A stretch of DNA of 64,000 nucleotides from NCBI GenBank assembly GCA_036229005.1, contig JAZAMN010000071.1, forward strand, positions 128,001-192,000. The letters run 5' to 3'. The DNA is from Myxococcota bacterium (GTDB lineage Bacteria; Myxococcota_A; UBA796; CAJQPC01). A program made the translations under genes and the position numbers. The notes below the pieces were generated by a model. It made no database searches and was not told where the DNA came from. It saw nothing but the letters and a program-made list of their open reading frames with translations. Of this stretch, positions 2,681 to 25,250 are shown piece by piece; within the stretch, counting starts at the first letter, position 1; each line of letters opens with the position of its first letter.

Positions 2681-2835
2681 GCGGGCGCAACCCGGGGTGA
2701 ATGCACCGGATGCGGGCTCAACCTGGGGTGAATGCACCGGGTGCGGGCTCAACCTGGGGTGAATGCACCAGGCGCGGGCTCAACCCGGGGTGAATGCACC
2801 GGGCGCGGGCTCAACCCGGGGTGAATGCACCCGAT
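2681..2835 (+). repeat. Tandem array, 5 x 31 bp (GCGGGCTCAACCYGGGGTGAATGCACCRGGY), left arm of element A
   Basis: Read directly; units start at 2681, 2712, 2743, 2774 and 2805. Confidence 0.97.
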
Positions 2836-2868
2836 TCGGGCGCGTGGCCGCGTGAGAGCGGCCTGGAT

Positions 2869-2952
2869 GGTGCACTCGGTGGGGGTTGAGTCGGAGAGAG
2901 GTGCACTCGGATGGGGTTGAGTCGGAGACCGGTGCACTCAGATGGGGTTGAG
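2869..2952 (-). repeat. Tandem array, about 2.7 x 31 bp (GGTGCACTC-N5-GGGTTGAGTCGGAGA..), inverted right arm of element A
   Basis: Units start at 2869, 2900 and 2931. The reverse complement gives CTCAACCC-N5-GAGTGCACC, matching the left-arm boxes. Confidence 0.93.
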
Positions 2953-2954
2953 CC

Positions 2955-5900
2955 CTACTCCCACTCCGGCAGCTCGCCCTTGAGGCTCTCGGCGATGGCG
3001 TCGGCCTCGCTGGCCCAGGCCTGGGCGTCCTGGGGGCGCTCGGCCAGGGCGGCGAGCAGGCGCCGGGCCTCCAGATCCAGCAGCTTGAGGCCACGGGCGG
3101 AGGACAGGTGGGCGGCGTCGCGGGCCAGGCGCTCGGCCTCGTCGTTGACCAGCAGCACGGCGTAGGCGCGGGCGCACTCCATGAGCACGCGGGCGCGGCG
3201 GGGGACGGGCAGCTTTCCGACGCCGTACTCCGCGGTCTTGAGCATGCGGCGGGCGTCCCCGGCGTCCCCGGTCAGGGCGCAGGCCCAGGCGCTGAGGGCG
3301 ACCAGGGCGGGCAGGTAGGACTCGGGGTCCTGCTTGCGGGCCAGGTTGCGGGCGATGGCCAGGTGGGACTCGGTGGTGCCGGGATCGCCGATGCGCGCGG
3401 ACAGGCGGGCCAGGGAGAAGCGGCAGGCGATGGTCTCCTGGAACACGCCCAGGGGCTGGACTTCGGAGAGGGCCTGGCCCAGGGCCTTGCGGGCGCCGCT
3501 GTCGTCGCCGGCCTCCAGGAGGGCCTCGCCGTAGACGCGCAGAGCGGAGCCGCGGCCCACGCGGAAGTGGATCTCCTCGGCCAGGCTGCGGGCCTCCAGG
3601 GCGATGCGCTGGGCCTCGCGGAGCTGCCCCTGCCAGGTGCGCATCTCGGCCAGGTTGGTCAGGGCGACGCAGCGGCTGTCCTTCTGGCCGAGCTCCTTGA
3701 ACAGGGCCTCGGCCTGCTCCAGCCCGCGGGAGGCCAGGTGGATCTGGCCCTGGGCGGCCTGGGCGGCGGACAGGGCGACCTGCAGGTCCCCGCGCACCAC
3801 GTCGCGGCGGCCGCACATGAGCAGGCCCTCCTCGGACAGGGACTGGACGGCCTCCAGGTCGCCGGTCTCGAAGGCCAGGGCGGCGCGGGCGTAGAGCGCC
3901 TCGGCCACGGCAGCGCGCAGGCGCCCCTGGCGGGCCTCCTTGAGGGCCAGGTCCACCTGGTCGATGGCCTTGATGGGCTGCTCCATGCGGGCCAGGCAGC
4001 GGCCCAGGGTGGCGCGGGCGCGCACGGCGGCGGCGTGAGGTCCGTGCCCCTCCAGCCCGCGCAGCAGCCCCAGGCAGGTCTTGCGGCAGTCCTCCCACTC
4101 CCCGCGCAGGTAGAGGATGGCGGCGCGCACACCCAGGAGCTGGGTGCGGGCCTCGCGGAAGGCGGCGGGGCCCAGGTCGGTGGCGGCCATCTCCTCTACC
4201 GCCATGGCTCGCGTGGACAGGTCCCAGGCCAGCCGGGGCATGGAGCGCCCCTGCATGCGCTCGGCGGCGTCGCTCAGGTAGACGAAGGCCTTGCCCGCCT
4301 CCCCCGCCAGGCGGAAGTGCTCGCCCACCTGCTCCAGGTAGCGGGGGTCGACCTGGGCGGCCTCCTCCAGAGAGAGGGCCAGGGCGCGGTGCAGCTCCAC
4401 CCGCCGCTCGGTGTCCAGGGCGCGGTAGACCACGTCGGCCTGCAGGCGGTGGGCGGTCTCGTGGATCACCTGGTGACCCCGACGGCGCTCGCGGATCAGC
4501 CCGCTGGTGATCAGCGCGTCGAGCTGATCCAGGACGTCGTCCTCGTCTTTGCCCAGGACCTCCAGCAGGTGGTCCAGGTCCAGAGGCCCGGAGTTGACCG
4601 CCAGCACTTCGAGCACCGCCCGCTCCGCTCCCCCCAGGTCCCGAAGGCGCTGGGCCACGACCTGCTGGACTCCGCGGGGGATCTCCAGGTGGCCGGTGCG
4701 CACCTCTTCGGTGTCGGCGGCCAGGCGCAGGCCCTTGGGGGTGGGCTCGATCAGGCCGCTCTGGAGCAGGGACTCCAGGAACTGGGAGATGAAGAGAGGG
4801 TTGCCCTCGGTCTCCTTGTGCAGGCGCCTGGCCAGCGCCTGGGAGCGCCCGGAGTCGCCCAGCAGCGTGCGCACCAGGGTCTCCACGGCGACCATGGACA
4901 GGGGCTCCAGCCGGATCTGGCGGGGGGTCACGCCCAGCTCCTGGCCGTCCAGCAGCGCCTGGGTGTCGCGCCGCAGCCCGCCCTCTTGCACCGAGAGCAC
5001 CACCAGCAGGGGCTGACCGGCGGCCACCAGCGAGCGGATCAGGGTCTCCAGCAGGTCCACGCCGCGCCGGGGGAGCTCCTGGACGTCGTCAAAGAGCAGC
5101 GCCCGGGGGCCCTTCTCCAGAAGCTGCGCCATCACCGGACGCAGGCGGTCGGTCAGGCGGTAGAGCGCGTCGCCGTGGGCCCGGCCATCCTTGAGCTCGC
5201 GGACGGCCTCCTCCAGCTCGTGGGCGTGGGGGGCGGCCTCCAGCACCTGCTCGCACAGCGTCAGCAGGCCGTAGAGGTTCTCCCGGCGGGGCGACAGGCG
5301 GTGCACCGGGATGCCGATGGCGCCGGCGCGGTGTTCGGCGGCGTCCAGCAGGCGCGTGCGGCCCATGCCCACCCGACCGCGCAGCGTGACCACCCCACCC
5401 TCGCGCACGGTGAGGCGATCGACGGCGTCCTGCAGCAGCTCCAGCTCGGCCCCGCGACCGACCAGCGGCGGCACCCAGTCCTCGTCGCCGACCTCGGGCC
5501 GATCGGGCTGTAGCTGCTCCAGGCGGTAGAGGATCTCGCGGGCGGACTGGAAGCGGTCCTTGGGCGACTTCTCCAGCAGCTTGGAGCAGATCTCGTCCAG
5601 GTGCTTGGGGACCTTTGGCTCCAGATCCCGGGGCGAAGGCGGCTTCTGCTTGGTGTGCGCCTCCAGGTACCCGGCCATGTCCTTGGCGTCGAAGGGCCGG
5701 TAGCCCGTCAACATCGCGAAGAGCAGGATGCCCAGGGAGTACAGGTCCGAGCGGTGGTCGATGGCCCCGCCGGTGATCTGCTCGGGGCTGGCGTAGGCCC
5801 AGGTGCCCACCAGGGTCCCGGAGCGGAAGGCGTCGTCCGGGTCCAGGTCCTTGACGATGCCGAAGTCGGTCAGCTTGGCCCGCCCCTGGGGGTCGATCAG

Positions 5901-6371
5901 GATGTTCGAGGGCTTGAGGTCCCGGTGCACCAGGCCCTTCTGATGCACGTGCGCCAGCGCCCGGCACAGGTCGACCAGGATCTCCTCGCAGCGCCGCCAG
6001 CGCTCAGCGGGGTCCTCCAGAAAACGGAAGGCCCGGATGGTCTGGTGCAGGTCCTTGCCCTCCACGTACTCCATCGCGATGTAGGGCTGGCCGTAGAGAT
6101 CGCCGTAGGCGTCGACGTGGATCACGTTGGGGTGCCGCACCCGCGAGAGCGCCCGGAACTCCCGCCGGAAGCGCTGCAGCGCCGAGCCCTTGGTCAGGCG
6201 GCTGCCCTTGAGCACCTTGAGCGCCACGGGCTCATCGTTGGGGTCTCGGCAGAGCAGCACGTCGGCCATGCCCCCCTTCCCCACGCGCTTGACGTACAGG
6301 TAGGGGCCGATCCGGCCTCCCGGCGCGATGCTGTGGCCGCCGATCTCCAGGGTCTGGGGGGTCTCGCTCAC
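2955..6371 (-). CDS. Ser/Thr kinase - STAND (AAA_16-like) NTPase - TPR-like protein
   Basis: Shows GKGGMADV, HRDLKPSN, DFG, SPEQ, PLVGR, GRVGMGRT, LLFDD and TEGNPLF, with a helical repeat C-terminus. GTG 6371 is the preferred start. Confidence 0.93.
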   Translation of the reverse strand: MSETPQTLEIGGHSIAPGGRIGPYLYVKRVGKGGMADVLLCRDPNDEPVALKVLKGSRLTKGSALQRFRREFRALSRVRHPNVIHVDAYGDLYGQPYIAMEYVEGKDLHQTIRAFRFLEDPAERWRRCEEILVDLCRALAHVHQKGLVHRDLKPSNILIDPQGRAKLTDFGIVKDLDPDDAFRSGTLVGTWAYASPEQITGGAIDHRSDLYSLGILLFAMLTGYRPFDAKDMAGYLEAHTKQKPPSPRDLEPKVPKHLDEICSKLLEKSPKDRFQSAREILYRLEQLQPDRPEVGDEDWVPPLVGRGAELELLQDAVDRLTVREGGVVTLRGRVGMGRTRLLDAAEHRAGAIGIPVHRLSPRRENLYGLLTLCEQVLEAAPHAHELEEAVRELKDGRAHGDALYRLTDRLRPVMAQLLEKGPRALLFDDVQELPRRGVDLLETLIRSLVAAGQPLLVVLSVQEGGLRRDTQALLDGQELGVTPRQIRLEPLSMVAVETLVRTLLGDSGRSQALARRLHKETEGNPLFISQFLESLLQSGLIEPTPKGLRLAADTEEVRTGHLEIPRGVQQVVAQRLRDLGGAERAVLEVLAVNSGPLDLDHLLEVLGKDEDDVLDQLDALITSGLIRERRRGHQVIHETAHRLQADVVYRALDTERRVELHRALALSLEEAAQVDPRYLEQVGEHFRLAGEAGKAFVYLSDAAERMQGRSMPRLAWDLSTRAMAVEEMAATDLGPAAFREARTQLLGVRAAILYLRGEWEDCRKTCLGLLRGLEGHGPHAAAVRARATLGRCLARMEQPIKAIDQVDLALKEARQGRLRAAVAEALYARAALAFETGDLEAVQSLSEEGLLMCGRRDVVRGDLQVALSAAQAAQGQIHLASRGLEQAEALFKELGQKDSRCVALTNLAEMRTWQGQLREAQRIALEARSLAEEIHFRVGRGSALRVYGEALLEAGDDSGARKALGQALSEVQPLGVFQETIACRFSLARLSARIGDPGTTESHLAIARNLARKQDPESYLPALVALSAWACALTGDAGDARRMLKTAEYGVGKLPVPRRARVLMECARAYAVLLVNDEAERLARDAAHLSSARGLKLLDLEARRLLAALAERPQDAQAWASEADAIAESLKGELPEWE

Positions 6372-6482
6372 GCCACGCTCCAAGCGGCGCAAGCATACCC
6401 CGCTGCGCTGGCCCGGGCCTTGCACTACCTTTCGGCAGCGCCCACCATCTTCGGGCTTTCCTCACTTGATTTGGAGACAGAC

Positions 6483-6902
6483 ATGGATTCCACGGTCACC
6501 TGGAACGAGGGCATGGCCTTCAAGGTCGACGTCGACGGCTTCGAGATGACGATCGACGCCGCCCCCGAACACGGCGGCACGGGCAAGGGCCCCACCCCCA
6601 AGCCCCTGATGCTCACCGCGCTGGCCGGCTGCACCGCCATGGACGTCATCGCCATCCTGGGCAAGATGCGCATCACCCCCAGCGCCTTCTCGGTCAGCGC
6701 CGACACCGAGCTCACCGAGCAGCACCCCAAGGTCTTCAAGGAGGTCGTGCTCACCTACCGCTTCGAGGGCGAGGACCTGGCCATCGACCGCCTCAAGCGG
6801 GCCGTGGAGCTCTCGGAGACGAGGTACTGCGGGGTGAACGCGATGGTCTCGAAGGCCACCACCGTGCGCACCGTGGTGTTCTACAACGGCGAGCAGATCT
6901 GA
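6483..6902 (+). CDS. OsmC/YhfA family protein
   Basis: GPTPKPLMLTALAGCTAMDV...SETRYCGV carries two conserved Cys. GGAG RBS precedes ATG 6483. Confidence 0.92.
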   Translation: MDSTVTWNEGMAFKVDVDGFEMTIDAAPEHGGTGKGPTPKPLMLTALAGCTAMDVIAILGKMRITPSAFSVSADTELTEQHPKVFKEVVLTYRFEGEDLAIDRLKRAVELSETRYCGVNAMVSKATTVRTVVFYNGEQI

Positions 6903-7008
6903 GCATCGACGAGGACAGGCTGAGGTGGGCCATTCCACCCGAGCCCCGTGCGATCTGCCCCAGAGACGACACAGTCGCTGGCGCCTTGCTGCGTGCTACC
7001 GTCGACAC

Positions 7009-8370
7009 ATGTGGCCCACGCTCCCTCTGACCGCCTGGCTGGCCTGCGCCGGCCCCGGTCCCAGCGCCAGCGACACCCAAGCGGCGGGCACCGACAGCGC
7101 CTGGCCCGAGCTGCCGGAGCTGGAGTCGGCAGCGCTCACCCTGGTCCACCAGGGCCTGCGCCTCTCCAGCGGGGAGACCCTCGCGGTGTCCACGGCCCCC
7201 GCCGGGCTGGACCAGCCCCAGACCCTGAGCTTCGTGCTCACCAACCGCTCCGCGCAGCGCCTGGAGTTCGACGCCGACCCGGCGGCCTGGCTGGACTCGG
7301 ACACCCTGAGCTGGGTGGAGCCGCCGCCCCAGGGCCTGGACCCCGAGCAGAGCGCCGCCTTCACCCTGGAGCTCTCCGTGCAGGGCTGGAGCAGCGGCGG
7401 ACAGCGCACGGAGACCCTGCGTGTGCCCTCCTCCCAGGTGGACTTCTCCTTGGATCTGGCCCTCCAGGTCCCCGAGCCCCTGCGCCTGGTGGTGGTGGGG
7501 AACGGCGGTTGGCTGGCCGTCAGCCACGACTACGGCCAGAGCTTCCAGGACCTGGACTACGACGTCGACGACCCCCGCTCCCGCACCACCATCGCCTACG
7601 GCGGCGGCCGCTTCTTCAAGGCCTGGGCCGACACCAACGACTGGTCCGAGCCCGGCCGCTACGCCTACAGCGAGGACCTGGAGACCTGGCAGAGCGCCAC
7701 CGTCAACGACGACTTCTGGGCCTCCCACTGCCTGTATGCCCACTCGCAGTTCGTGTGCGCCTGGGACGGCGGCATCGCCTGGTCCGAGTCCGGGGCGGGC
7801 GTGATCCACGAGCCCACCTGGGGCGGCCTGCTCAACCGGGCCGCCTGGGACGCGCAGACCCAGCAGGTGGTGTTCGCGGGCCGCAGCAGCCGCGTGGCCA
7901 CCAGCAGCGACGGGCAGGTCTTCGACAGCGACCAGCAGGTCAGCCCGGACGGCGACACCTTCTACAGCGTGGCCGTCGGCGGGGACACCTGGGTGGCCGT
8001 GGGCGGCAGCAACCGCGATCTCGTGGCCACCAGCCACGATCAGGGCGCCACCTGGAGCGTCCAGCTCCTGCGGGAGCAGCAGTACCTCTACCTGACCGAC
8101 GTGGCCTACAAGGACGGCCTCTGGCTGGCCGCCAGCATGGACGGCAGCCTCTACAGCAGCGCCGACGGGGACGGCTGGACCGCCCTGAGCCCCAACGTCG
8201 GGAGCCTGGAGATCCTGGGCGTCGTCGGCGACAACTTCCTCGCCGCCAGCACCCCATGGCAGGCCCAGTCCACGCTGCACCTGAGCCCGGACGGTGAGAC
8301 CTGGACGCAGGTACACAGCGTTCCCGGCACCCTCGCCCCCACCGACATGGCCCTGGAGACCTGGGAATGA
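7009..8370 (+). CDS. Lipoprotein with Ig-like domain and BNR/Asp-box beta-propeller
   Basis: Lipobox WLA-C; repeated S-x-D-G-x-T-W Asp-box motifs. Confidence 0.75.
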   Translation: MWPTLPLTAWLACAGPGPSASDTQAAGTDSAWPELPELESAALTLVHQGLRLSSGETLAVSTAPAGLDQPQTLSFVLTNRSAQRLEFDADPAAWLDSDTLSWVEPPPQGLDPEQSAAFTLELSVQGWSSGGQRTETLRVPSSQVDFSLDLALQVPEPLRLVVVGNGGWLAVSHDYGQSFQDLDYDVDDPRSRTTIAYGGGRFFKAWADTNDWSEPGRYAYSEDLETWQSATVNDDFWASHCLYAHSQFVCAWDGGIAWSESGAGVIHEPTWGGLLNRAAWDAQTQQVVFAGRSSRVATSSDGQVFDSDQQVSPDGDTFYSVAVGGDTWVAVGGSNRDLVATSHDQGATWSVQLLREQQYLYLTDVAYKDGLWLAASMDGSLYSSADGDGWTALSPNVGSLEILGVVGDNFLAASTPWQAQSTLHLSPDGETWTQVHSVPGTLAPTDMALETWE

Positions 8371-9674
8371 GCGCGCTGTTCACCCTGCTGCTGGCCTGCA
8401 CCCCCGAGCCCGCTCCCCAGGACACCCAGCCCCAGGACTCCCCGAGCGACAGCCCAGCAGACAGCGGGGACACCGGCGCGCAGACCTGCACCCTGGCCCT
8501 GGAGGCCTTGGTGGACGCGCAGCCTCTGGACGGCAGCCACCACCTGGGCAGCACCGCCGAGAAGGGCGAGGCCCTCACCCTGAGCCTCACCCTGCACAAC
8601 CCCTGCGCGCAGCGCCTGCGCTTCCTGGGACACCCCGACGAGTGGGTGCTCGGCGAGGGCTTCTCCCTGGGCACCCTGCCGCCGGTCTACCTGGACCCCG
8701 ACGCCTCCGCGACCCTGGAGCTGCACTTCCAACCCGGCGACGCCGGCGAGGCCACCGGCAGCTTCCGGCTCCCCTACGACCTGCCCAGCTCCCCCCTGGA
8801 GCTGTCGCTCTCCGCCACGGTCGACGGCCCCCTCACCCTGGTGTTCGTGGGCGATGGCCGCCACGTGCTCACCACCCACGACTACGGCGCCAGCTTCTCC
8901 ACCGACGCCTACGAGACCACCGTCGCCCACGGCGACAGCCTCCAGCGCGGCGTCTGCGCCAGCCCCGAGCTCTTCGTGAGCGTGGGCGGCAACGTCGACA
9001 GCCGCTGGTGGCGCAGCGTCGACGGCGACACCTGGACCGCCCACAGCGACCCCAGCGGCCCCGTGTTCGCCGCCTGCGCCTACGGCGACGGGCGCTTCGT
9101 CGCGGCCACCAGCGACGCCCCCTGGACCTCCACCGACGGCCTGAGCTGGAGCGCCGGGAGCGGCGACTACGCGGGCGGGCACCTGCGCGCCATGGCCTTC
9201 TCCGGGGGCACCTACGTGGCCGTCGGGGACAGCGGCAAGGTCTCCGCCACCACCGACGGCAGCACCTGGCAGATCGAGCACCACCTAAACGTGGGCGACC
9301 TGGGCGCGGTGGCCGGGCACGGACAGACCTTCGTGGCCGTGGGCGACGGGGGCACCGTGGTCACCTCCACCGACGGCGCGCAGACCTGGAGCCTGCTCTC
9401 GGTGGGCAGCGCCGACCTCAGCGGCGTCGTCTGGGCCCAGGACCGCTTCGTGGCCGGCGGCGGCGGTCAGCTCCACAGCTCCCTCGACGGCACCACCTGG
9501 TCCAGCGTGAATGCCGGACCGGACCGACCGGTGCTGGCGGTGGGCCCACAGATCTTCGCGCTCTCCGGCGCCTCTGTCCTCCTCTCCGAAGACGGCGGAT
9601 TCTCCTGGACAACGCTCTACACCTGGACGGGCGGACTGGGCGTCAGCCGCGCCGCCGCTGGGGGGACCCCATGA
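8367..9674 (+). CDS. Paralogous lipoprotein with Ig-like domain and BNR/Asp-box beta-propeller
   Basis: LLLA-C lipobox; repeated S-x-DG-x-TW motifs; ATGA overlap with the upstream gene; same architecture. Confidence 0.8.
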   Translation: MSALFTLLLACTPEPAPQDTQPQDSPSDSPADSGDTGAQTCTLALEALVDAQPLDGSHHLGSTAEKGEALTLSLTLHNPCAQRLRFLGHPDEWVLGEGFSLGTLPPVYLDPDASATLELHFQPGDAGEATGSFRLPYDLPSSPLELSLSATVDGPLTLVFVGDGRHVLTTHDYGASFSTDAYETTVAHGDSLQRGVCASPELFVSVGGNVDSRWWRSVDGDTWTAHSDPSGPVFAACAYGDGRFVAATSDAPWTSTDGLSWSAGSGDYAGGHLRAMAFSGGTYVAVGDSGKVSATTDGSTWQIEHHLNVGDLGAVAGHGQTFVAVGDGGTVVTSTDGAQTWSLLSVGSADLSGVVWAQDRFVAGGGGQLHSSLDGTTWSSVNAGPDRPVLAVGPQIFALSGASVLLSEDGGFSWTTLYTWTGGLGVSRAAAGGTP

Positions 9675-11563
9675 TGCTCCTGGGACTGCTGGCCCTGGCC
9701 TGCGAGACGCCCGAGACCCAAGACACCCAGGTCTGCGTGACCGACGCGGTCTTCTTTGAAGAAGAGGTGGCGCCGGTGCTCTCCGACTGCGTGGGCTGCC
9801 ACCTGGAGGGCGGGGTGGCCTCCGAAGCCCGCTACGCGCTGGCGGTGGGCACAGACGAGGACACCCTGGCCGCGAACCGCGCCGCACTCGAGGCCTTCAT
9901 CCTGGACACCGAGGACGGCGCCGATCTGCTGCTGGACAAGCCCAGCGGGCAGATCTCCCACGCCGGCGGCCTGCGCATGGACCGCTCGGACCCGGCCTAC
10001 GCCGCCCTCCACGAGTTCGTGGCCCGCACCCAGGACCCCGGCGGCTGCGCGCACCCCGGCACGCCCCTGCCCACCTGCGACGGCGGCGAGCTCCAGGGCG
10101 CGCCCATCGCCCCCCGGCGCCTGACGGACGCCCAGATCCGCAACGCCGCCCGGGACCTCTTCGGCGTCGACCCCGGCCCCGGGGTGTTCCCGCCCAGCGT
10201 GCGCGGCAAGGACTTCCGCACCTTCGCCAGCGCCAACCCGGTCAGCGGACCGGACGCCGAGCAGCTCATGCTGGCCGCCGAGACCGTCGCCGAGCTGGTG
10301 GACGTGGACGCGCTGCTGGCCGGCTGCGCCACCGACGCCTGCGCCCACGACTGGGTGCTGGAGACCGCCGAGCGCGCCTACCGGCGCCCCCTGACCCAGA
10401 AGGAGCAGCAGATCGCCACCCGCTTTGTGGACGCGGGGCTCTCGGTGGACGAGGGCGTGCGCATGTCCATCATGCTGCTGCTGCAGTCCCCGCAGTTCCT
10501 GTACCTGGACGCGGTCCCCGAAGACTCGGGCGTGCTGGACGACCACGCCATCGCGGCGCGGCTGGCCTTCTTCCTGACCGACACCCTGCCCGACGAGACC
10601 CTGCGGGAGGCGGCTGCCGCCGGGGAGCTGCACACCCGCGAGCAGGTCGCCGCCCAGGCCGCCCGGCTGGTCCAGGACCCCCGCGCTCTGCGGGCCGTGG
10701 AGAACTTCCACGACGACTGGCTGGACGGCTACCGCATGGACGGCGCTGAGCGGGACGCCAGCTACTACCCGCACTTCTCCGAGGCCACCCTGGCCAGCAT
10801 GCAGGCCGAGATGGACCTGATGGTCACCGAGGTGCTCTGGGGCGGCGAGGCCACCTTCGCCAACCTGATGTTCAGCCAGACCACCTGGGTGGACTCCGAA
10901 CTGGCTGCCATCTACGACCTGCCCGATCCTGGCCCCGGCTGGCACCGGGTGGAGCTGGGGCCGGAGCGCCCCGGGGTCCTGACGCGGGCGGGCTTCCTCA
11001 CGGGACACGCCTACACCGCGTCCAGCTCGCCGGTGCAGCGGGGGGCCTTCGTGCTGCAGGAGATGCTCTGCGAGGAGCTGGTGCCCCCGCAGGACGTCAA
11101 CATGGACCTGCCCCCCGAGTCCGAGGAGGCCGAAACCATCCGCGAGCGCCTGGCCCAGCACGCCGCCGACCCCGCGTGCGCGAGCTGCCATGACCGCATG
11201 GACCCCATCGGCTTCGCCTTCGAGAACTTCGACGCCGTGGGCTCCTGGCGCGATGCCTGGGAGTCGGGCATCCCGGTGGACGCCACCGGCAGCCTCGCGG
11301 ATCCCGCTGGGGACTTTGACGGCGCCGCCGAGATGCTGGGCAGCGTGGCCACCTCCGAGCGCGCCATGCGCTGCTACGCGCAGCGCTGGTACGAGTACGG
11401 CCAGGGGCGCCCGGTGGACGACGCCGACCTGTGCAGCCTGAGCGCCGTGCAGGCCCGCTTCGAGGCCTCGGGCGGCGACATCCGTGCCCTGATGGTGGAC
11501 ATCGCGGTCAGCGACGCCTTCCGCGCCCAGATTCCCTCCGAGACCGCCCAGGAGGCCGAATGA
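9671..11563 (+). CDS. DUF1592/DUF1588 (PSD-type) lipoprotein with two CxxCH motifs
   Basis: RRLT, RAYRRPL, LLQSPQFLY, SSPVQRG and CASCHDRMDPIGFAFENFDAVG; N-terminal CVGCH; ATGA overlap. Confidence 0.9.
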   Translation: MMLLGLLALACETPETQDTQVCVTDAVFFEEEVAPVLSDCVGCHLEGGVASEARYALAVGTDEDTLAANRAALEAFILDTEDGADLLLDKPSGQISHAGGLRMDRSDPAYAALHEFVARTQDPGGCAHPGTPLPTCDGGELQGAPIAPRRLTDAQIRNAARDLFGVDPGPGVFPPSVRGKDFRTFASANPVSGPDAEQLMLAAETVAELVDVDALLAGCATDACAHDWVLETAERAYRRPLTQKEQQIATRFVDAGLSVDEGVRMSIMLLLQSPQFLYLDAVPEDSGVLDDHAIAARLAFFLTDTLPDETLREAAAAGELHTREQVAAQAARLVQDPRALRAVENFHDDWLDGYRMDGAERDASYYPHFSEATLASMQAEMDLMVTEVLWGGEATFANLMFSQTTWVDSELAAIYDLPDPGPGWHRVELGPERPGVLTRAGFLTGHAYTASSSPVQRGAFVLQEMLCEELVPPQDVNMDLPPESEEAETIRERLAQHAADPACASCHDRMDPIGFAFENFDAVGSWRDAWESGIPVDATGSLADPAGDFDGAAEMLGSVATSERAMRCYAQRWYEYGQGRPVDDADLCSLSAVQARFEASGGDIRALMVDIAVSDAFRAQIPSETAQEAE

Positions 11564-12945
11564 GCCGCATCAACCGCCGCGCCTTCCTCCGCGCCGGCGC
11601 CGCTACCCTGGCCGTGCCCGCCCTGACGCGCTTCCGCAGCGCCCACGCCGCCACCTATGGGCTGCCCAAGCGCATGCTGGTGCTGCACAGCCCCCAGGGC
11701 ACCGTGATGCGGGACTGGGTGCCCACCGGCAGCATCGAGGACTTCGCCCTGGGGCCCATCACCTCGCCGCTGGCCCCCTTCCAGGACCGCATCATCGTGG
11801 TCGCCGGCTGCGACAACAAGATGCCCGGCTACAACAGCGTCGGGAACGCGCACTACAACGCCAACCAGACCTTCCTGACCGGCCGGCCCTTCGCCGCCCA
11901 GGACTCGGCGGCCATCTCCGCGGGCGGCCCCAGCATCGAGCAGGTCATCGCCAGCCGCATCTCCACGGAGACCCCCTTCCCCCGCCTGGACTTCGCCATC
12001 GGCGGCAGCGACAACGGCACGGGCTTCTTCACGCCCACCGAGAGCAGCTACTTCTGGATCGACGCCTACGACCCGGTCTCCTACTTCAACGACCCTGTCC
12101 TCGCGTCGCTGCGGATCTTCGGGGATGCCTCGGTCGCGCCCGCGGACCAGTGGGCCGAGCGCGCGACGCGGGCCAGCGTGCTTGGCGGTGTGCTCGCGAA
12201 CTTCGACGCGCTCTCCCCCTCCCTCTCCAGCGAGGACCGCAGCCGCCTGGACGCCCACGCGGAGAAGGTGGCCGCCCTGGAGGCCCGCATCGCCTCGGGC
12301 ACCGGCGCGTGCACGCCGCCCACCCTCAGCCTGCCCTCGGACTACGACCTGGCCGACGACGACGACGTGACCGCGCCCGTGATGGCCGACGTGCTGATCA
12401 CCGCGCTGGCCTGCGACATGACCCGGGTGGCCACGCTGCACTTCGCCAACGGGCACTCCCCCACCTTCCCCTGGCTGACCGCCCGCAACGGCGGGAGCCC
12501 CATCGTGGACCCCAGCCTCTTCGACGTGTGGCACACCATGGTCCACGCCGACTACCAGGCCGGCATGGAGCTGGCCTACCAGTGGTACTACGAGCAGTGG
12601 GCCGCCATCCTGGAGCAGATGGCCAACACCACCGACGCCGACGGCGACAACCTGCTGGACACCACGCTGGTCATGATGGTCTCCGAGTTCAGCTCGGGGC
12701 GGCACTGGAACCGCAACCTGCCCATCGTGTTGGCCGGCTGCGTGGGGGACGCGCCCCTGGGCCGCTGGCTGGACTACCGACCCGGCAGCGTCGACGACTA
12801 CGAGGCGGCCAACGGCTATCTGGACAGCGCCTACAGCACCAACCAGCTCTACGTCTCGCTGCTGCAGGCCTTCGGCTACTCCGACGAGGCCTTTGGCTAC
12901 ACCGCCGACGAGCTCCCCGCGGGGCCCCTGCCCGGCCTTCTCTGA
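11560..12945 (+). CDS. DUF1552 (HxxSHH-family) Tat-exported protein
   Basis: Tat motif NRRAFL; SIEQVIA, ALACDMTRVATL and NLLDTTLV motifs; canonical position downstream of the DUF1592 gene. Confidence 0.9.
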   Translation: MSRINRRAFLRAGAATLAVPALTRFRSAHAATYGLPKRMLVLHSPQGTVMRDWVPTGSIEDFALGPITSPLAPFQDRIIVVAGCDNKMPGYNSVGNAHYNANQTFLTGRPFAAQDSAAISAGGPSIEQVIASRISTETPFPRLDFAIGGSDNGTGFFTPTESSYFWIDAYDPVSYFNDPVLASLRIFGDASVAPADQWAERATRASVLGGVLANFDALSPSLSSEDRSRLDAHAEKVAALEARIASGTGACTPPTLSLPSDYDLADDDDVTAPVMADVLITALACDMTRVATLHFANGHSPTFPWLTARNGGSPIVDPSLFDVWHTMVHADYQAGMELAYQWYYEQWAAILEQMANTTDADGDNLLDTTLVMMVSEFSSGRHWNRNLPIVLAGCVGDAPLGRWLDYRPGSVDDYEAANGYLDSAYSTNQLYVSLLQAFGYSDEAFGYTADELPAGPLPGLL

Positions 12946-12949
12946 GGGC

Positions 12950-15900
12950 TCAGCCCGGGAACAGGCCCAGGCGCTGCAGGCGCCCCACGAAGCTGCGCCG
13001 GAGCTCCTCCGGCATGCCGGAGAGCTGGCGCTGGACCAGCTCGCGCAGCTCCTGGTCGGGGGAGACGCCCAGGGTGCCCAGCAGGAGCAGGGCCTCCATG
13101 CGGAGGGCGGCCATCCCGGGGGTCTGGGTGAGCTTGGCGCAGCGCTTGGCGTGGGCCAGGGCGGCGCCGCTGGCGCCCTCGCGGATCATGGCCCAGGAGC
13201 GGTAGAGCTCCCAGCGGGCGGCGTCGCCGACGCCGGGTGGGGGCTGGGGGCTGTGCTTGAGGCCGCGCACGCCGACGGGGCCCAGGACCTGCATGCCGAC
13301 GTGGTAGAGCAGCTCCTGGCCGACAGGGTCCAGGACAGGATCCGCCAGCTCCTGGGAGACGAGGCCGGGCAGGATGGCCTGGCACTCGTCGGTCTGACCA
13401 GCGCTCATGTAGGCCTCGCTCAGCAGGAGCTGGGCGCGGGAGACCAGGTCGGGCTGCTCGGCGTTGCGGGCGATGCGCATGGCGCGGCGGGCGCGGTCCA
13501 GGGCGACCCGCAGGCGGCCGTCCAGCAGGGCCAGATCGGCGCTGTGCAGCATGCAGGCGGCGCGCTCGCGGGGGTGGCCGTCGTCCAGCTTCTGCTCGGC
13601 CAGCTCCAGGGCACGGGTGGCCCGGATCAGGTTTCCGGCGCGCAGCTCCAGGGTGCCCAGGCCCAGCAGGCTGCGGCCTTCCTGCAGGCGGTCCCCGGAC
13701 TTGCGGGCGGCGCTCAGGGCGCGCTCCCAGGTGCGTGCGGCCTCGGCGCGCTGACCGTCGGCCAGCCAGGCGTCAGCCAGGGCGCGGGTGAAGTCGTGGC
13801 GCGAGGGGTGGGAGACGGGCAGCACCTCCAGGGCGGCCTGGAGCTGGCCGCGGGCCTGGCCGGGCTCGCCCAGATCCAGCAGCGCCTGGCCCAGCAGGCC
13901 GCGGATGCGGGCCTGCTCGCTGGCCTCCAGGTGGCTCATGGAGAGGGCCTCGTGCAGGCAGTGCCCAGCCTCGGCGGGCTCGCCCTGCTCCAGCAGGACC
14001 TCGCCCTGCAGGGAGAGCATGGTGCAGGCGAGCTGGGGCTGGTCGGGCTCCGGCATGAGGGCCCGGACCTCGAGCGAACGCTCGGCCAGCCGGCGGGCCG
14101 CGCCCAGGCGGCGCCGGCGGCGCTCCCAGCTCGCGGCGCGGGCCAGCAGGGGCCAGGCCTGGGCGGGCTCGCCGGCCCGCAGCAGGTGGGTGGCGGCGCG
14201 CTCGGCCACGGAGCCGATGCGGCGGCGGTGCTTGCGCTGGAGCAGCGCGGCGGCCTGGCGGTTGAGCTCCGCGCGGCTGCCGCCGTCCAGGCCCTCCAGG
14301 ACCACCCGCAGGGTGTCCTTCTGGGCAAAGCGAAGCTGCTCCTGCAGGCCCTCGCCGGCGCGGAGCAGCAGGGGGTCCAGGCGGGGGTCGCTCAGGGCGC
14401 GGGGGCCGCCGGGGCTCAGGCCTGCGATCAGCCCCAGGTCGGCCTCGCCGTCCAGGATGGCCAGGGCCTCCAGGGCCTGGCGCGCGGCGTGCCCGATCTC
14501 GGCCAGGATGCCCTCGACGAGCTCCCGATGGGCCTGGGGTACGGGCAGCTCTCCCCCCCGGACGCGCGCGGCCGGGACGGTGAGGACGAGACCTTCGTCG
14601 GAGGCCTCCAGCCACCCTGCCTCGTGAAAGGCCTGGAGCGCCTGGAGCACGCCCCCGGGGCGGCCCTCGCACCAGGCGTGGAGGCGCTGACCGGCCACCC
14701 GGGCGGCCTTGGCGCTCAAGCCCTGGTCCCGCAGCATGGCGACGATGGCGCGGCGGGGCAGCGGGCCGCAGTCCAGGGCCTGGGCCTCCAGATCGATCCA
14801 CAGGCCGGAGCGCAGGCGCTCCAGCAGGAAGGCGGTGTCCTCGCTCAACGGCTGCCCGGTGCGCCCGGTGAGTACGTAGATCAGCAGGACCTGGCGGGCC
14901 AGGCGGTCATCGCGCAGCAGGGCCTCGATGGCGCCCATGTCTGCACGGGTGCCTCGGTCCAGGTCATCCACCAAGAGCAGTGTGGGCTCGGGTACGACCC
15001 CCTCCAGAGTCAGCTCCTCCAGGGCCTGACCCAAGGGGGCGTCGCCAGGCAGTCGGCGCTGGAGCACCCGGAGCCCCAACTCGCTGGCCTGCTCGGAGAT
15101 GGCGCCCAGGAGCGCGCTGCGGCCGCTGCCCGGGAGGCCCAGGATGGCCATCTCACCGCCCTGCCCGCGGCGGAGCTCGCTGATGCGCTGACCGGCGTGG
15201 CGCAGATCCTGCTGGCGGCCGTGAAGGCGCTGGTGGTGACCGGTGTCGGGGGCGTCCAGGGCCTCCAGAACCTCGCCGGCGGACTGGGGACGCTGGCTGG
15301 GGTCCTTGCGCAGGAGCCGCATGCACAGGCGGGAGAGCTTGTGGGGGCACGCGGGGTTGACCTGCAGAGGCGGGGGCGGGTCCTCCATCAGGTGCTTGGC
15401 CAGGTAGCCGGCGATGGAGTCGGCCTCGACGGGGCGGTTGCCGGTGAGCAGCACGTAGAAGACGGCGCCCAGGGCGTAGAGGTCGACGCGGGGGGAGATC
15501 TCCTCTTCGGTGATCTGCTCGGGGGCCATGAAGGCGACGGTGCCCACCAGGTGCCCGGCCATGGTCAGGTTGGTGGTGAACTGGTCGGGGGCCTTGACCG
15601 AGCCGAAGTCGGTGAGCTTGGGGTTTCCGTGGGCGTCGATGAGGATGTTGGAGGGCTTGATGTCCCGGTGCACGAGGCCGCGGTCGTGGATGTGGGCCAG
15701 GGCCAGGCAGAGGCCCCGCAGCAGCCGGGTGGACTCGGCGAAGCGGTCCACGCCAGGGCGCTCCTCCCAGCGGTGGAGGAGCTCTTCCAGCGTGCCGCCG
15801 CTGACGTGCTCCAGGACCAGGTAGGGGTAGCCCTGCTCCTCTCCCGACGAGAGCACCTTGACCACGTGCGGGCTGTCCATGAGCTGCATGGCCTGGAACT

Positions 15901-16093
15901 CGCGGTGGATGCGCGTGACCTGCTCGGGCGTGGTGCGGTCCGGGTTCATGACCTTGACGGCGACGGGGCCGTCCGGGCCGTCGGCGCGCCAGACGGTGGC
16001 CAGACCTCCGGCGCCCAGGCGCTCCTGGAGGCGGTAGGGGCCGACCAGACTTCCAGGCCCGGGAGGGGGCCCCAGGCGACGGGGTGAACTCAT
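12950..16093 (-). CDS. Ser/Thr kinase - STAND NTPase - TPR-like protein
   Basis: GAGGLATV, HRDIKPSN, DFG, APEQ, LHGR, GLPGSGRS and LLVDD motifs. Confidence 0.92.
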   Translation of the reverse strand: MSSPRRLGPPPGPGSLVGPYRLQERLGAGGLATVWRADGPDGPVAVKVMNPDRTTPEQVTRIHREFQAMQLMDSPHVVKVLSSGEEQGYPYLVLEHVSGGTLEELLHRWEERPGVDRFAESTRLLRGLCLALAHIHDRGLVHRDIKPSNILIDAHGNPKLTDFGSVKAPDQFTTNLTMAGHLVGTVAFMAPEQITEEEISPRVDLYALGAVFYVLLTGNRPVEADSIAGYLAKHLMEDPPPPLQVNPACPHKLSRLCMRLLRKDPSQRPQSAGEVLEALDAPDTGHHQRLHGRQQDLRHAGQRISELRRGQGGEMAILGLPGSGRSALLGAISEQASELGLRVLQRRLPGDAPLGQALEELTLEGVVPEPTLLLVDDLDRGTRADMGAIEALLRDDRLARQVLLIYVLTGRTGQPLSEDTAFLLERLRSGLWIDLEAQALDCGPLPRRAIVAMLRDQGLSAKAARVAGQRLHAWCEGRPGGVLQALQAFHEAGWLEASDEGLVLTVPAARVRGGELPVPQAHRELVEGILAEIGHAARQALEALAILDGEADLGLIAGLSPGGPRALSDPRLDPLLLRAGEGLQEQLRFAQKDTLRVVLEGLDGGSRAELNRQAAALLQRKHRRRIGSVAERAATHLLRAGEPAQAWPLLARAASWERRRRRLGAARRLAERSLEVRALMPEPDQPQLACTMLSLQGEVLLEQGEPAEAGHCLHEALSMSHLEASEQARIRGLLGQALLDLGEPGQARGQLQAALEVLPVSHPSRHDFTRALADAWLADGQRAEAARTWERALSAARKSGDRLQEGRSLLGLGTLELRAGNLIRATRALELAEQKLDDGHPRERAACMLHSADLALLDGRLRVALDRARRAMRIARNAEQPDLVSRAQLLLSEAYMSAGQTDECQAILPGLVSQELADPVLDPVGQELLYHVGMQVLGPVGVRGLKHSPQPPPGVGDAARWELYRSWAMIREGASGAALAHAKRCAKLTQTPGMAALRMEALLLLGTLGVSPDQELRELVQRQLSGMPEELRRSFVGRLQRLGLFPG

Positions 16094-16115
16094 GGGCAGA
16101 GGTTAGCAGGAAGCA

Positions 16116-17357
16116 ATGGCATCCCCCTCCTGGCTCAGTGACCCGCAGGCGGCGTTGCGCAACCTGGTGCGCATGCGCTGGGCGCAGGGTGTGCTGCTGG
16201 CGATCGCGGCCGCGGCGGCGTGGATGGGGAACCGCGAGCTGACCGCGCTGCAGATGCTGATGCCCCTGGCGCTGCTGGGCGTGAGCAACCTGGCGCTGGA
16301 GCGTCTGGTCCAGGCGCGGCACACGCCCCCGTGGATGCCCACCGCCGCGCTGCTGCTGGACCTGGGCCTGCTGACCGTGATCCTCAGCGTGTCGGGGGGA
16401 CCAATGAACCCCTTCGTCGCGGCCTACCTGGCGGTCATCGTGGGGGCCAGCCTGCTGCTGGGCCGCCGCGGGGTGGTCGCGGTGCTGGTGAGCGCGGTGG
16501 CGGCCTACGGGCTGCTCTTCCTGACCCCCGGGGGCCGCTCGGAGCACGCCCAGCACATGGCCGGGCACCTGTGGGGGATGTGGCTGGCCACGGCGCTGGT
16601 GGGCGCCTTCGCGGCGGGCGCGATCCTGGCGTACCGGAGCGCACTGGCGGCGGCGGAAGAGGCCCTTCGGGAGGCGGAGGCGGAGCGTCAGCGGGGTGAA
16701 CAGCTCGCGGCCCTGGGCACCCTGGCGGCGGGGGCGGCGCACGAGCTGGCGACCCCGCTGTCGACCATCGCGGTCGTGGCCAAGGAGCTGGAGCTGCAGC
16801 TTGAGGACCCCCAGGCCCGCGAAGACGCAGCGCTGCTCCGGGAAGAGGTGGGTCGCTGTCGGGGCATTCTGTCGCAGATGGCGGTTCAAGTTGGGGCATC
16901 GCCGGCCAGCTTCGGCGAGCAGATCGCAGTGCGGGAGCTGATCGACGAGGCGCTGACCGGGGTGCTGGAGGCGCCGGAGGTTGAGCTCGTGGTGACCTCG
17001 TCGGCGCGCTGCAGCCTCAAGGTGCCCGGGAGCCTGATGGCCAGCGTGGTGAGGAGCCTTGTGCGCAACGCCCAGCAGGCCTCCTCCCCCGACTCCCCGG
17101 TGCAGCTCCTGGTGGATCGCAGCGACGCGGGCGTGCGCATCTCCGTGAAGGACCGGGGCAAGGGGATGGACGCGGCGACGCTGGCGCGGGCCTTGCAGCC
17201 CTTCTTCACGACCAAGGAGACGGGAGCCGGAATGGGACTGGGTCTGTTCGTGGCAGACAGCGTGGCGCGGCAGTTGGGCGGTAGGCTCCTGCTGGAGTCC
17301 GCGCCGGGTCAGGGCACGACGGCCACCCTGGAGCTCCCGCTGGAGGTGTGTGCATGA
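16116..17357 (+). CDS. regB: RegB/PrrB/ActS-type redox sensor histidine kinase
   Basis: Multiple TM segments; GGPMNPF quinone-binding motif; AAHELATPL H-box; RCRGIL redox Cys; FFTTK and GMGLG boxes. Confidence 0.88.
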   Translation: MASPSWLSDPQAALRNLVRMRWAQGVLLAIAAAAAWMGNRELTALQMLMPLALLGVSNLALERLVQARHTPPWMPTAALLLDLGLLTVILSVSGGPMNPFVAAYLAVIVGASLLLGRRGVVAVLVSAVAAYGLLFLTPGGRSEHAQHMAGHLWGMWLATALVGAFAAGAILAYRSALAAAEEALREAEAERQRGEQLAALGTLAAGAAHELATPLSTIAVVAKELELQLEDPQAREDAALLREEVGRCRGILSQMAVQVGASPASFGEQIAVRELIDEALTGVLEAPEVELVVTSSARCSLKVPGSLMASVVRSLVRNAQQASSPDSPVQLLVDRSDAGVRISVKDRGKGMDAATLARALQPFFTTKETGAGMGLGLFVADSVARQLGGRLLLESAPGQGTTATLELPLEVCA

Positions 17358-17878
17358 GCGACAAAGAGAGCATCCTGGTGGTGGACGACGACGTCCGGCT
17401 GGCCGGCCAGATGGCCCGGGCGCTGGAGCGGCGCGGCTACGTGACCGAGGTCGCGCACGACGGCGGCGAGGCCCTGGAGCTGATGCGCGAGGACCCCACC
17501 GAGTGGGTGCTGCTGGACCTCAAGATGCCGGGCGCCGACGGGCTCTCGGTGCTCAAGGAGATGATGGCGCTCACGCCCCAGCCCCGGGTGGTGATGCTGA
17601 CGGGCTTCGCGTCGCTGGGTACGGCCGTGGAGGCGGCCCACATGGGCGTGGTGCAGGTGCTCCAGAAGCCGGCCGACGCGGACGAGGTGGTGGCAGCGTT
17701 CACAGAGGGTCGAGGGCAGACGGAGGTCCACGCCCCCACCCTCGCGCGGGCGGAGTGGGAGCACATCCAGCGGGTCCTTGACGAATGCGAGGGCAACATC
17801 AGCCAGGCGGCCCGGGTGCTGGGGCTGCACCGGCGGACGCTGCAGCGGAAGCTCTCGAAGAACGCGCCCAAGCGTTGA
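17354..17878 (+). CDS. regA: RegA/PrrA/ActR response regulator
   Basis: REC domain plus the hallmark WEHIQRVL...NISQAARVLGLHRRTLQRKL Fis-type HTH. Confidence 0.93.
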   Translation: MSDKESILVVDDDVRLAGQMARALERRGYVTEVAHDGGEALELMREDPTEWVLLDLKMPGADGLSVLKEMMALTPQPRVVMLTGFASLGTAVEAAHMGVVQVLQKPADADEVVAAFTEGRGQTEVHAPTLARAEWEHIQRVLDECEGNISQAARVLGLHRRTLQRKLSKNAPKR

Positions 17879-17891
17879 GGCTTGGTGGGCG

Positions 17892-18015
17892 TCCGGCCGG
17901 GCATCCGGGGGTGAATGCACGCTCCGGCCGGGCATCCGGGGGTGAATGCACGCCCTCGCCGGGCATCCGGGGGTGAGTGCACGCTCTGGCCGGGCATCCG
18001 GGGGTGAATGCACGC
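17892..18015 (+). repeat. Tandem array, 4 x 31 bp (TCCGGCCGGGCATCCGGGGGTGAATGCACGC), left arm of element B
   Basis: Units start at 17892, 17923, 17954 and 17985. Confidence 0.97.
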
Positions 18016-18040
18016 TCAGGGGCCAGGATCGCGTGGAGTT

Positions 18041-18157
18041 CGGGCGTTCAGGGCGGGATGCCCCGGAAACGCGGGCGTTCAGGGGAGGATGCCCCGGAGA
18101 GGCGGGCGTTCAGGGCGGGATGCCCCGGAGAGGCGGGCGTTCAGGGCGGGATGCCCC
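18041..18157 (-). repeat. Tandem array, about 3.8 x 31 bp (CGGGCGTTCAGGGCGGGATGCCCCGGAGAGG), inverted right arm of element B
   Basis: Units start at 18041, 18072, 18103 and 18134. The reverse complement GGGCATCC-N5-TGAACGCCCG matches the left-arm GGGCATCC-N5-TGAATGCACG. Confidence 0.95.
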
Positions 18158-18166
18158 ACTCAGCCC

Positions 18167-18361
18167 TCACTCCCAGGCCAGCGGAAGGGCCTCGCGCAGC
18201 GCCGAGTGGGCAATCACCGACGGTGCTGACCCAGACAGCAGCCCCGGCGCACCCGGCGGGAAGGGGCCGGAGCACAGGTCCACCCTGAACCCACCGCCCG
18301 ACGCCGGCCCTTGCGGCGGTACCGATGGCCCCGGCGCTCCACACCCCAGCAGCCACCACAT
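18167..18361 (-). CDS. Small (64 aa) lipoprotein-like ORF or gene remnant
   Basis: ATG overlaps the kinase TGA (TGATG). Starts MWWLLG-C, like other short lipoprotein leaders in the window. Confidence 0.35.
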   Translation of the reverse strand: MWWLLGCGAPGPSVPPQGPASGGGFRVDLCSGPFPPGAPGLLSGSAPSVIAHSALREALPLAWE

Positions 18362-24144: not shown

Positions 24145-24152
24145 GTGCGCGC

Positions 24153-25187: not shown

Positions 25188-25250
25188 GCGGGGGGTCTCC
25201 AAAGCCTTCCAAGTTTAGGCCGACCCGAGCCGGACGGCCACCACCGGCGA

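Follow-up and report, generated by a model that had tools for sequence, protein, structure and literature searches.

Two-arm arrays of 31-bp units beside RAYT/TIRYT-like genes in a Myxococcota genome: a probable REPtron/TIRtron-type system with an unusual architecture

In REPtrons, genes for RAYT enzymes are flanked by their own family of repetitive extragenic palindromic (REP) sequences or REPINs, and several such families can occur in one genome (Bertels & Rainey 2011, PMC3116915). For the enzyme TnpA_REP, a cut-and-rejoin model has been proposed to explain the amplification of units in bacterial interspersed mosaic elements (BIMEs) (Ton-Hoang 2012, PMC3333891); further descriptions of REP/RAYT systems are given by Nunvar 2010 (PMC2817692), Messing 2012 (PMC3479197) and the structure 4ER8. 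Y1 proteins with an additional C-terminal helix-turn-helix (HTH) part have been described as TIRYT (Di Nocera 2013, PMC3733652) and as subclass 2.1 of TnpA_Y1 (Quentin 2018, PMC6006769). The C-terminal domains of TIRYT proteins were named as Bac_DnaA_C, HTH_23 and HTH_28 (PMC3733652), and TIRYT genes are flanked by simple terminal inverted repeats, many of them with GGGGWSAS; Quentin 2018 (PMC6006769) reports that no REP-like sequences were found near subclass 2.1 genes. Here, these systems are compared with two inverted repeat arrays, elements A and B, located in a 64,000-nt stretch of the genome of a Myxococcota bacterium (GenBank assembly GCA_036229005.1, contig JAZAMN010000071.1, positions 128,001 to 192,000). 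This stretch is the window that was analysed (G000:C71:128001-192000), and coordinates without a contig handle are window positions. Elements A (family F5) and B (family F2) belong to a superfamily of 117 elements which is probably recognised, kept and resized by five cognate RAYT/TIRYT-like enzymes of the HUH-Y1 type, one for each family.

The genome is a 6.4-Mb draft of 74 contigs with 70% G+C. With one detector, 150 arrays of period 31 were found in it, compared with no arrays of periods 28, 29, 32 and 34, 26 of period 30 and seven of period 33, so that period 31 lies far beyond chance. In the common register, the 31-bp unit consists of a first half-site H1 (positions 1-8), the segment N6 (9-14), a second half-site H2 (15-23) and a linker (24-31). 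Scanning for H1 and H2 with up to three mismatches yielded 927 units in the genome and 113 in the reversed-genome control, and 572 of 593 successive unit spacings are exactly 31 bp. The units form 117 paired elements with 2 to 8 units per arm, all of which have their arms in converging (+/-) orientation (117/117). Both arms are of one family in 116 elements; the remaining one mixes F5 and F1. Unpaired arms of at least two units occur only seven times genome-wide. The exact period and inverted symmetry, which a first-pass annotation had read from elements A and B by sequence alone, are therefore properties of the whole superfamily.

Five families are distinguished by their half-sites, namely F1 (GCGCAAGT-N6-GAACGCAAC, 30 elements), F2 (GGGCATCC-N6-GAACGCCCG, 20 elements), F3 (GAGCTACG-N6-GAGTGCGCG, 12 elements), F4 (AGGCTACG-N6-GAGTGAGCG, 42 elements) and F5 (GCGCAACC-N6-GAATGCACC, 12 elements). 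The half-sites behave as modules, because chimeric units in this genome (e.g. an F5 H1 joined to an F1 H2 at C4:163457) and the family GGCATCG-N6-GAACGCAAC of two same-genus relatives combine H1 and H2 of different families. Identity to the arm consensus amounts to 95% for H1 and 96% for H2, compared with 85% for N6 and 73% for the linker. This agrees with the first-pass view that the arrays are not neutral minisatellites. An origin from replication slippage, with no binding partner, could explain why units are near-identical within an arm and why their number varies from 2 to 8, but it accounts neither for a single period of 31 in five unrelated-looking families and in other genomes nor for the inverted two-arm design of 117/117 elements, the quantised spacers described below and half-sites that are four- to six-fold better conserved than the variable segments. 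It is given practically no credence, being refuted by period, orientation, constraint and spacer counts. CRISPR arrays, judged on the repeats alone, were also rejected because the units are contiguous, those of one arm resemble each other in their variable segments (85% and 73%) and the arrays occur in inverted pairs.

Partner genes that are RAYT-like, a kind of gene for which the first-pass annotation had proposed a check, were found adjoining the elements. An open reading frame (ORF) between two adjacent F2 elements encodes a 266-aa protein (P0001), which carries MPNHIHLL and RYIYLNPCRAGLV and matches the NCBIfam model REP_Tyr_transpos (NF047646) with an E value of 1.8e-8. A profile of 15 homologs matches PDB 4ER8 (E. 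coli TnpA_REP) with an E value of 6e-7 over a region spanning the HUH and Tyr motifs, and residues H43, H45 and Y97 are invariant in 15/15 homologs. The AlphaFold model of P0001 (pLDDT 93.4, pTM 0.89) has 4ER8 as its best PDB match in Foldseek (E 7e-4, probability 1.0, TM 0.57 on the target), followed by weaker matches to the IS200, ISDra2 and ISHp608 transposases. A C-terminal HTH domain is predicted for the RAYT-like proteins from fold matches of the helical C-terminal part to 3ONQ and 7QH5 (HTH proteins including a sigma factor) and to 3PVP (DnaA DNA-binding domain, probability 0.9), all with E above 0.009; matches of this part in Pfam are weak and below cut-off (Xre-like HTH, E 0.006; HTH_23, E 0.096).

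The genome encodes five intact paralogs of 258-278 aa, which are 49-55% identical to P0001 and of which none lies inside the window. Four of the five have a full element of a distinct family at a distance of 6-163 bp: the gene on contig C24 has F2 elements on both sides, and those on C32, C21 and C52 adjoin an F1, an F5 and an F3 element, respectively. In the case of the fifth gene, on C27, one F4 unit and a partial unit are located 148 bp upstream, and the contig extends for only another 123 bp. Relatedness among the proteins parallels that among the motifs: the closest protein pairs, those of F1 and F5 (68%) and of F3 and F4 (69%), are also the closest motif pairs (13/17 and 14/17), and F2 is the outlier in both comparisons. 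A GGTGTCGAAGGGCCGACACC-like inverted repeat is present in the 170-bp upstream region of all five genes (C24:38890-39059, C32:33139-33308, C21:20584-20753, C52:41745-41914 and C27:37986-38155) and may be an operator or a hairpin.

Because they adjoin RAYT/TIRYT-like genes, the elements belong to the REPtron/TIRtron kind of system. As in REPtrons, they are short, non-coding intergenic repeats that lie mostly 3' of genes, with a species-specific repertoire, and they form several families per genome, each beside its own single-copy HUH-Y1 gene; the HUH motif, the single catalytic Tyr and the fold of the TnpA_REP type are all found here. The five dispersed families comprise 12-42 elements each; four of the five paralogs are flanked by a different family each, and the fifth paralog has F4 units at a contig end. 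A further likeness to REPtrons and REPINs is an inverted two-part symmetry that is able to fold back: all elements converge, and as single-stranded DNA 103 of the 117 whole elements fold back with z below -3, with a median of 80% of base pairs bridging the arms. However, a REP forms a stem-loop, being itself an imperfect palindrome of 20-40 nt, whereas the 31-nt unit is not palindromic. The arm of a REPIN is a single REP, whereas here it is a head-to-tail array of 2-8 strictly 31-bp units, and REPINs are populations of near-identical copies with a master sequence, which is not found here. Unlike in REPtrons, spacers and A/T patches follow the helical repeat, and the enzyme is about 100 aa longer than a REPtron RAYT, has the predicted HTH domain and misses the thresholds of PF01797 and NF047646. 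CGTAGC, containing the GTAG tetranucleotide that is conserved at one end of REPs, is carried by H1 of F3 and F4, while F1, F2 and F5 have CTTG, GATG and GTTG in the same place; CGTAG also occurs in several arrays of other genomes.

TIRtrons may be similar in combining a Y1 core related to TnpA_REP with a C-terminal HTH-like extension, to which the weak HTH_23 match and the fold match to the DnaA DNA-binding domain would correspond here. Their flanking repeats are likewise not classical REP hairpins, and in some genomes they form moderately abundant families in dimers or clusters. In contrast to simple terminal inverted repeats, the genes here are flanked by whole two-arm arrays of 31-bp units, of which about 117 copies are dispersed over the genome. 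GGGGWSAS is most closely approached by a GGGGTGTC...GACACCCC palindrome located 5' of the genes, with GGGGTGTC deviating from the consensus at one base. Two blocks of helically phased direct repeats also occur in plasmid centromeres such as R1 parC, where they surround a core, and in iteron arrays, and this likeness suggests cooperative coating by a DNA-binding protein. Here, however, about 117 copies are chromosomal and located at gene 3' ends, the blocks are inverted and there are no adjoining par or rep genes. BIMEs share the property of being higher-order, regularly spaced clusters of transposase-related repeats and, as reported in PMC2817692, bind IHF and DNA gyrase, but their REPs alternate in orientation, whereas the units described here keep one direction per arm with a single central inversion (117/117). 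The first-pass annotation had called the elements undescribed. This does not hold for their kind, which is that of REPtrons and TIRtrons, but it does for their architecture: phased two-arm 31-bp arrays, with non-palindromic head-to-tail arms, helically quantised spacers and no master copy, were not found described in the literature searched (including PMC12306157 and PMC2817692), with subscription journals and supplements outside the search.

The geometry of the elements points to double-stranded DNA as the form that is bound. Inter-arm gaps cluster at 0, 10, 21, 31, 42, 52, 62, 72-74, 83-85, 93, 103-104 and 114 bp, i.e. in steps of about 10.4 bp, and this pattern is also seen within single families. 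In the 62 long spacers, the A/T periodogram peaks at 10.5 bp with a power of 1.93, compared with 0.19 in controls, and A/T occurs at unit positions 5-6, 16-18 and 24-27 in all families. A strict unit of three helical turns and spacers of whole turns thus argue for binding to one face of double-stranded DNA, and the paired protein-binding platform, one of two options given in the first-pass annotation, is the best fit to the stepped spacers and phased A/T patches. Some spacers have further regularities. Those of F4 (42 elements, e.g. C71:91231, C71:198280 and C71:242993) are 72-83 bp long, are bounded by ACCGAT...ATCGGT and are built of A/T patches every 10.5 bp (ggcccagatc-like), so that they look like intrinsically curved or wrapped DNA. 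Long F1 and F2 spacers (73-85 bp) contain a conserved core, CAAGYnnnTGAAATC, in either orientation. It has 13 matches in the genome, seven of which are inside elements (C43:18898, C51:22112, C30:105908, C35:35310, C8:19716, C57:24932 and C5:13058), and on C52 and C27 a close version is located, in antisense direction, in the stretch from the palindrome to the start codon of the RAYT-like gene.

In the mechanism that is proposed for the system, H1 and H2 of each family would be bound by the cognate enzyme, whose predicted HTH domain would recognise double-stranded units aligned on one helix face, and whose HUH/Tyr core would cut and rejoin single strands that are exposed when the arms fold back. 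As in the model for TnpA_REP and BIMEs, arrays would thereby gain or lose whole 31-nt units and new elements would be seeded, whereas effects on the transcripts of upstream genes, such as termination or 3' protection, would be a side effect. A more far-reaching version is put forward only tentatively and is rather doubtful. According to it, the enzymes of a RAYT/TIRYT clade that has gained an HTH domain would assemble and police nucleoprotein platforms in phase with the helix, located at the 3' ends of about 120 genes and each consisting of 4-12 three-turn units in two mirror-image arms with whole-turn spacing. The five enzyme-motif pairs would have diverged together, with the segments between the fixed half-sites turning over faster than the flanking genes, and the 31-bp rule would be the footprint of a protein lattice. 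The elements would then not be mobile repeats but a domesticated part of the chromosome that is coated with protein and acts as a boundary, a terminator or a topological device.

Several observations weigh against recognition and resizing of the elements by cognate RAYT/TIRYT-like enzymes. The NF047646 score of P0001 is 34.4 bits and thus below the curated cut-off of 80, and Pfam PF01797 has no match in the genome and none in P0001. The link between the C27 gene and F4 consists of one unit and one partial unit at a contig end, and the co-divergence of enzymes and motifs is based on five taxa, for which the chance of matching cherries is estimated by the author at about 1 in 15. Among flanks of homologous genes in other metagenome-assembled genomes (MAGs), 131 of 152 have no detectable array within 450 bp. 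As hairpins, the 31-nt units are no better than shuffles on either strand in any of the five families (mean z -0.6 to +0.3). Because single units form no hairpins, REP recognition in its known form, by stem-loop and GTAG, cannot apply as such. Near-identical copies of elements are limited to three pairs with at least 85% identity over at least 70% of the length, two of which are local tandem duplications; as there is no master copy, recent whole-element transposition is not seen. Excision joints at element A were not seen in Logan contigs, which break inside the arrays. Finally, the helical phasing would fit another DNA-binding protein equally well.

Accordingly, the arrays could be architectural sites at which the phased DNA is wrapped by a host protein that has no relation to the RAYT-like enzymes, e.g. 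DNA gyrase or a nucleoid-associated protein, with the Y1 genes being the historical source or merely co-located. This is consistent with inter-arm gaps that increase by about 10.4 bp at a time and with A/T patches at 10.5-bp intervals in a genome of 70% G+C, with H1 and H2 being conserved while the variable segments drift, with the lack of a master copy or recent transposition, and with the binding of IHF and DNA gyrase reported for BIMEs. However, five motif families would need five host specificities, whereas five paralogs with Y1 core and HTH part are each located beside a different family and co-diverge with it. In addition, families differ between same-genus species that have different paralogs, and no tested motif is present in the same-genus genome G003, which lacks the gene. 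A host protein is therefore considered an improbable partner.

The first-pass annotation had further concluded that selection or concerted evolution maintains the symmetry between the two arms. Over the 17 H1/H2 positions, arm complementarity is 0.901. It drops to 0.626 (maximum 0.681) when right arms are permuted among all elements, but is 0.909 when they are permuted within families, and 500 of 500 such permutations reach the observed value. Because of the within-family result, the own partner arm fits no better than another arm of the same family; covariation across the superfamily is real, but it exists between families only. Where arms depart from the family consensus, both carry the same deviation in 15 cases and different ones in seven, compared with 186 deviations confined to a single arm; chance alone would produce about 31 double deviations. 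In element A, GCTCAACC is found in both arms, which is the sole such case among the 12 F5 elements; the T variant of F5 occurs in six right arms and one left arm. Between arms, complementarity is lacking in N6 (0.31) and in the linker (0.32). Uncompensated variants and the permutation result therefore indicate no selection for arm pairing beyond keeping the family motif in both arms, so this part of the earlier interpretation was abandoned.

Some arm-specific features were noted besides. In the 12 F3 elements, unit position 17 is A in eight left arms and in no right arm, though contig orientation should be arbitrary, and all five RAYT-like genes are on the minus strand of their own contigs. 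This points either to a non-random orientation of the contigs or to a polarity of the elements, for which no clear link to local GC skew was found. Only a weak trend (r 0.44) is seen for N6 to be rich in G or in C on one and the same strand in the two arms.

The elements might instead act mainly as RNA, in the form of long imperfect hairpins in 3' untranslated regions that serve converging genes as bidirectional terminators or barriers to 3'-exonucleases. Their genomic placement, determined with the author's own crude GC3 gene caller, is in line with this: of 104 placeable elements, 59 are located between convergent, 40 between co-directional and five between divergent genes, whereas adjacent gene pairs genome-wide are 18% convergent, 64% co-directional and 18% divergent. 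Element flanks are gene 3' ends in 166 cases (67 within 20 bp) and gene 5' ends in 55. The fold-back of most elements with predominantly arm-bridging base pairs would also suit an RNA hairpin. Against such a role, within-family arm variants are uncompensated (15 vs 186), the own partner is no better than a permuted one, and neither N6 nor the linker is complementary. Fold-back of element B is weak (z -2.4, compared with -6.6 for element A). Its H2 is incompletely complementary between the arms (GAATGCACG vs GAACGCCCG). Quantisation of spacers by the helical repeat would be meaningless for a hairpin loop, and a terminator needs no strict 31-nt unit with two half-sites. An Rfam search over window positions 1-22000 with E up to 1 gave one sub-threshold match, away from elements A and B, and no match at either of them. 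A primary function as RNA is thus regarded as less probable still than binding by a host protein, and the structured-RNA reading of the first-pass annotation, i.e. a structured RNA family, was rejected on account of the uncompensated changes, the equally good pairing of permuted arms and the empty Rfam result at the elements.

With regard to elements A and B themselves (Table 1), several similarities pointed out in the first-pass annotation were found again. The left arms are identical at about 20 of 31 positions and have the 13-mer GGGGTGAATGCAC in common, CAWCC-N6-GARYGC is kept in all four arrays when they are aligned in the common register, and the arms contain the complementary pairs CTCAAC/GTTGAG in A and GGCATC/GATGCC in B. 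These are the only four period-31 arrays that TRF detects in the whole window. The claim that A and B form one family holds at the level of the constrained superfamily, but within it they belong to two different families.

Table 1. Window positions of the repeat arrays, of the parts of elements A and B and of flanking genes (the latter given for context only)
Feature	Position	Strand	Description
TRF array	2681-2831		4.9 copies, 94% matches
TRF array	2869-2952		2.7 copies, 90% matches
TRF array	17892-18017		4.1 copies, 92% matches
TRF array	18041-18157		3.8 copies, 93% matches
Element A	2685-2953		Five left and three inverted right units, 21-bp gap
Element A, left arm	2685-2839	+	Five head-to-tail F5 units: H1 GCKCAACC, N6, H2 GAATGCACC, 8-nt linker; canonical GCGCAACC in outermost unit, GCTCAACC in remaining four
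Element A, inter-arm spacer	2840-2860	none	21 bp, about two helical turns
Element A, right arm	2861-2953	-	Three inverted F5 units, H1 RCTCAACC, H2 GAGTGCACC; stops 1 bp short of kinase-STAND-TPR stop codon (2955-2957)
Element B	17899-18156		Four left and four inverted right units, 10-bp gap; begins 20 bp past response-regulator stop codon
Element B, left arm	17899-18022	+	Four F2 units, H1 GGGCATCC, variant H2 GAATGCACG replacing GAACGCCCG
Element B, inter-arm spacer	18023-18032	none	10 bp, about one helical turn
Element B, right arm	18033-18156	-	Four inverted canonical F2 units, GGGCATCC-N6-GAACGCCCG
Kinase-STAND-TPR gene	2955-6425	-	Pkinase + AAA_16 (STAND) + TPR, 1156 aa; element A abuts its 3' end
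Response-regulator gene	17348-17878	+	REC + Fis-type HTH; upstream of element B
Second kinase-STAND-TPR gene	18361-21807	-	Pkinase + AAA_16 + TPR, 1148 aa; stop about 204 bp from element B

It was also considered whether A and B are a locus-specific, specially related pair tied to the kinase-STAND-TPR genes, for instance as a shared regulatory module. Both are indeed located 3' of genes encoding Pkinase, AAA_16 and TPR domains, which are their right-hand neighbours, and apart from the common 13-mer they share the linker sequence CGGAGA and the spacer sequence CGCGTGG, which are rare (6/808 units and 3/117 spacers, respectively). Overall similarity between A and B is ordinary, however: their variable parts are alike at 14 of 28 positions, and 2048 of 6786 element pairs score as high or higher. 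Of the 120 genes whose 3' end has an element, only three belong to the kinase-STAND-TPR type, and two of these three prompted the idea. Moreover, orthologous genes in same-genus relatives are without elements, and element B directly abuts the response-regulator gene and not the more distant kinase gene. A special relationship between A and B and their association with kinase genes were therefore rejected on the basis of the genome-wide census, and this explanation is considered highly improbable.

The few data on the history of individual copies concern mainly the variable segments and single loci. In a contig from another study (run X2) with element A at the same site, there are 14 differences within 2852-2940, 13 of which are located in spacer, linker or N6 of this single contig. 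The sole H1 change restores the canonical base, and the flank of A differs at 11 of 818 positions (about 1%). Judging from this one contig, the variable segments of A may turn over faster than the surrounding genes. Some neighbouring elements of the same family are alike in their variable parts. The sole near-identical element copies in the genome are two tandem duplications at C4:163464-164625 and C35:1220-2030, each comprising a whole element together with about 560 or 350 bp of intervening DNA, respectively, with 97-98% identity. No conserved target site or duplication was seen in 40 nt at the outer ends of the elements. Element A was not found after the orthologous kinase gene in the same-genus genomes G001-G003, in which the far-side synteny differs, and the intergenic region of G002 that matches the site of B measures 204 bp instead of 519 bp and has no units. 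In the RNA runs X8 and X9, only 0.06 of the sampled words were present.

Beyond this genome, the RAYT-like protein family has at least 285 members in metagenomes. Precomputed Pfam domains are lacking in all of them, and their sources label some as RayT or putative transposase. Among the 152 flanks of homologous genes at 76 loci in other MAGs, the best tandem lag is 31 in 12 and 32 in one more, compared with lag 31 in 0 of 121 control flanks 3 kb away; the arrays found by these genes have different unit sequences and again form inverted pairs. The gene is present in 10 of 30 relatives. Matches to the F1 motif number 198 in G000, and none was found in the 30 relatives. Two same-genus genomes, G001 and G002, have the gene together with their own 31-bp two-arm family, GGCATCG-N6-GAACGCAAC, in which an F2-like H1 is combined with the H2 of F1, while the likewise same-genus G003 has neither the gene nor any tested motif pattern. 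A generic pattern of phased GARYG exceeds the noise in G000, G001 and G002 only.

A few further features were observed in or near the window. The approximately 200 bp between element B and the stop of the kinase-STAND-TPR gene (18160-18360) are absent in G002. A minus-strand ORF at 18167-18622 overlaps the kinase ORF and has no Pfam match; it ends in ...AWE*, similar to the ...EWE* of the kinase gene next to element A, and could represent either a C-terminus shifted out of frame or non-coding DNA. In G001-G003, the orthologous kinase gene is followed by a conserved sequence of about 85 nt (GGGTTGAGTCTTCGGATTCCCCAGAGCTGGCCC...; L083:1225-1310, L084:1335-1420 and L085:1365-1450), which has no match in the window with up to three mismatches. 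Long runs of 6-, 9-, 18- and 21-bp repeats of the TGTCGG and GACAGC types, detected by TRF at 23286-25509 and 48300-49400, probably encode Asp/Ser/Thr-rich repeat proteins.

The function of RAYT-type enzymes and the origin and growth of REP-like repeats are still unsettled, and for the large Y1 subclass with a C-terminal HTH, Quentin 2018 (PMC6006769) reports no REP-like partners. For annotation, the elements account for about 200 tandem-repeat calls and for many contig breaks in this and related marine MAGs. On the best reading, they are a REPtron/TIRtron-type system with an unusual architecture and not a structured RNA. With five intact paralogs, five motif families and 117 elements, they provide a clean system in which modular half-sites recombine between families and between species, and the geometry of 31 bp, i.e. 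three helical turns, and whole-turn spacers predicts that one face of double-stranded DNA is bound. How specific each enzyme is for its family, what the HTH domain does and how units are gained or lost are therefore directly testable.

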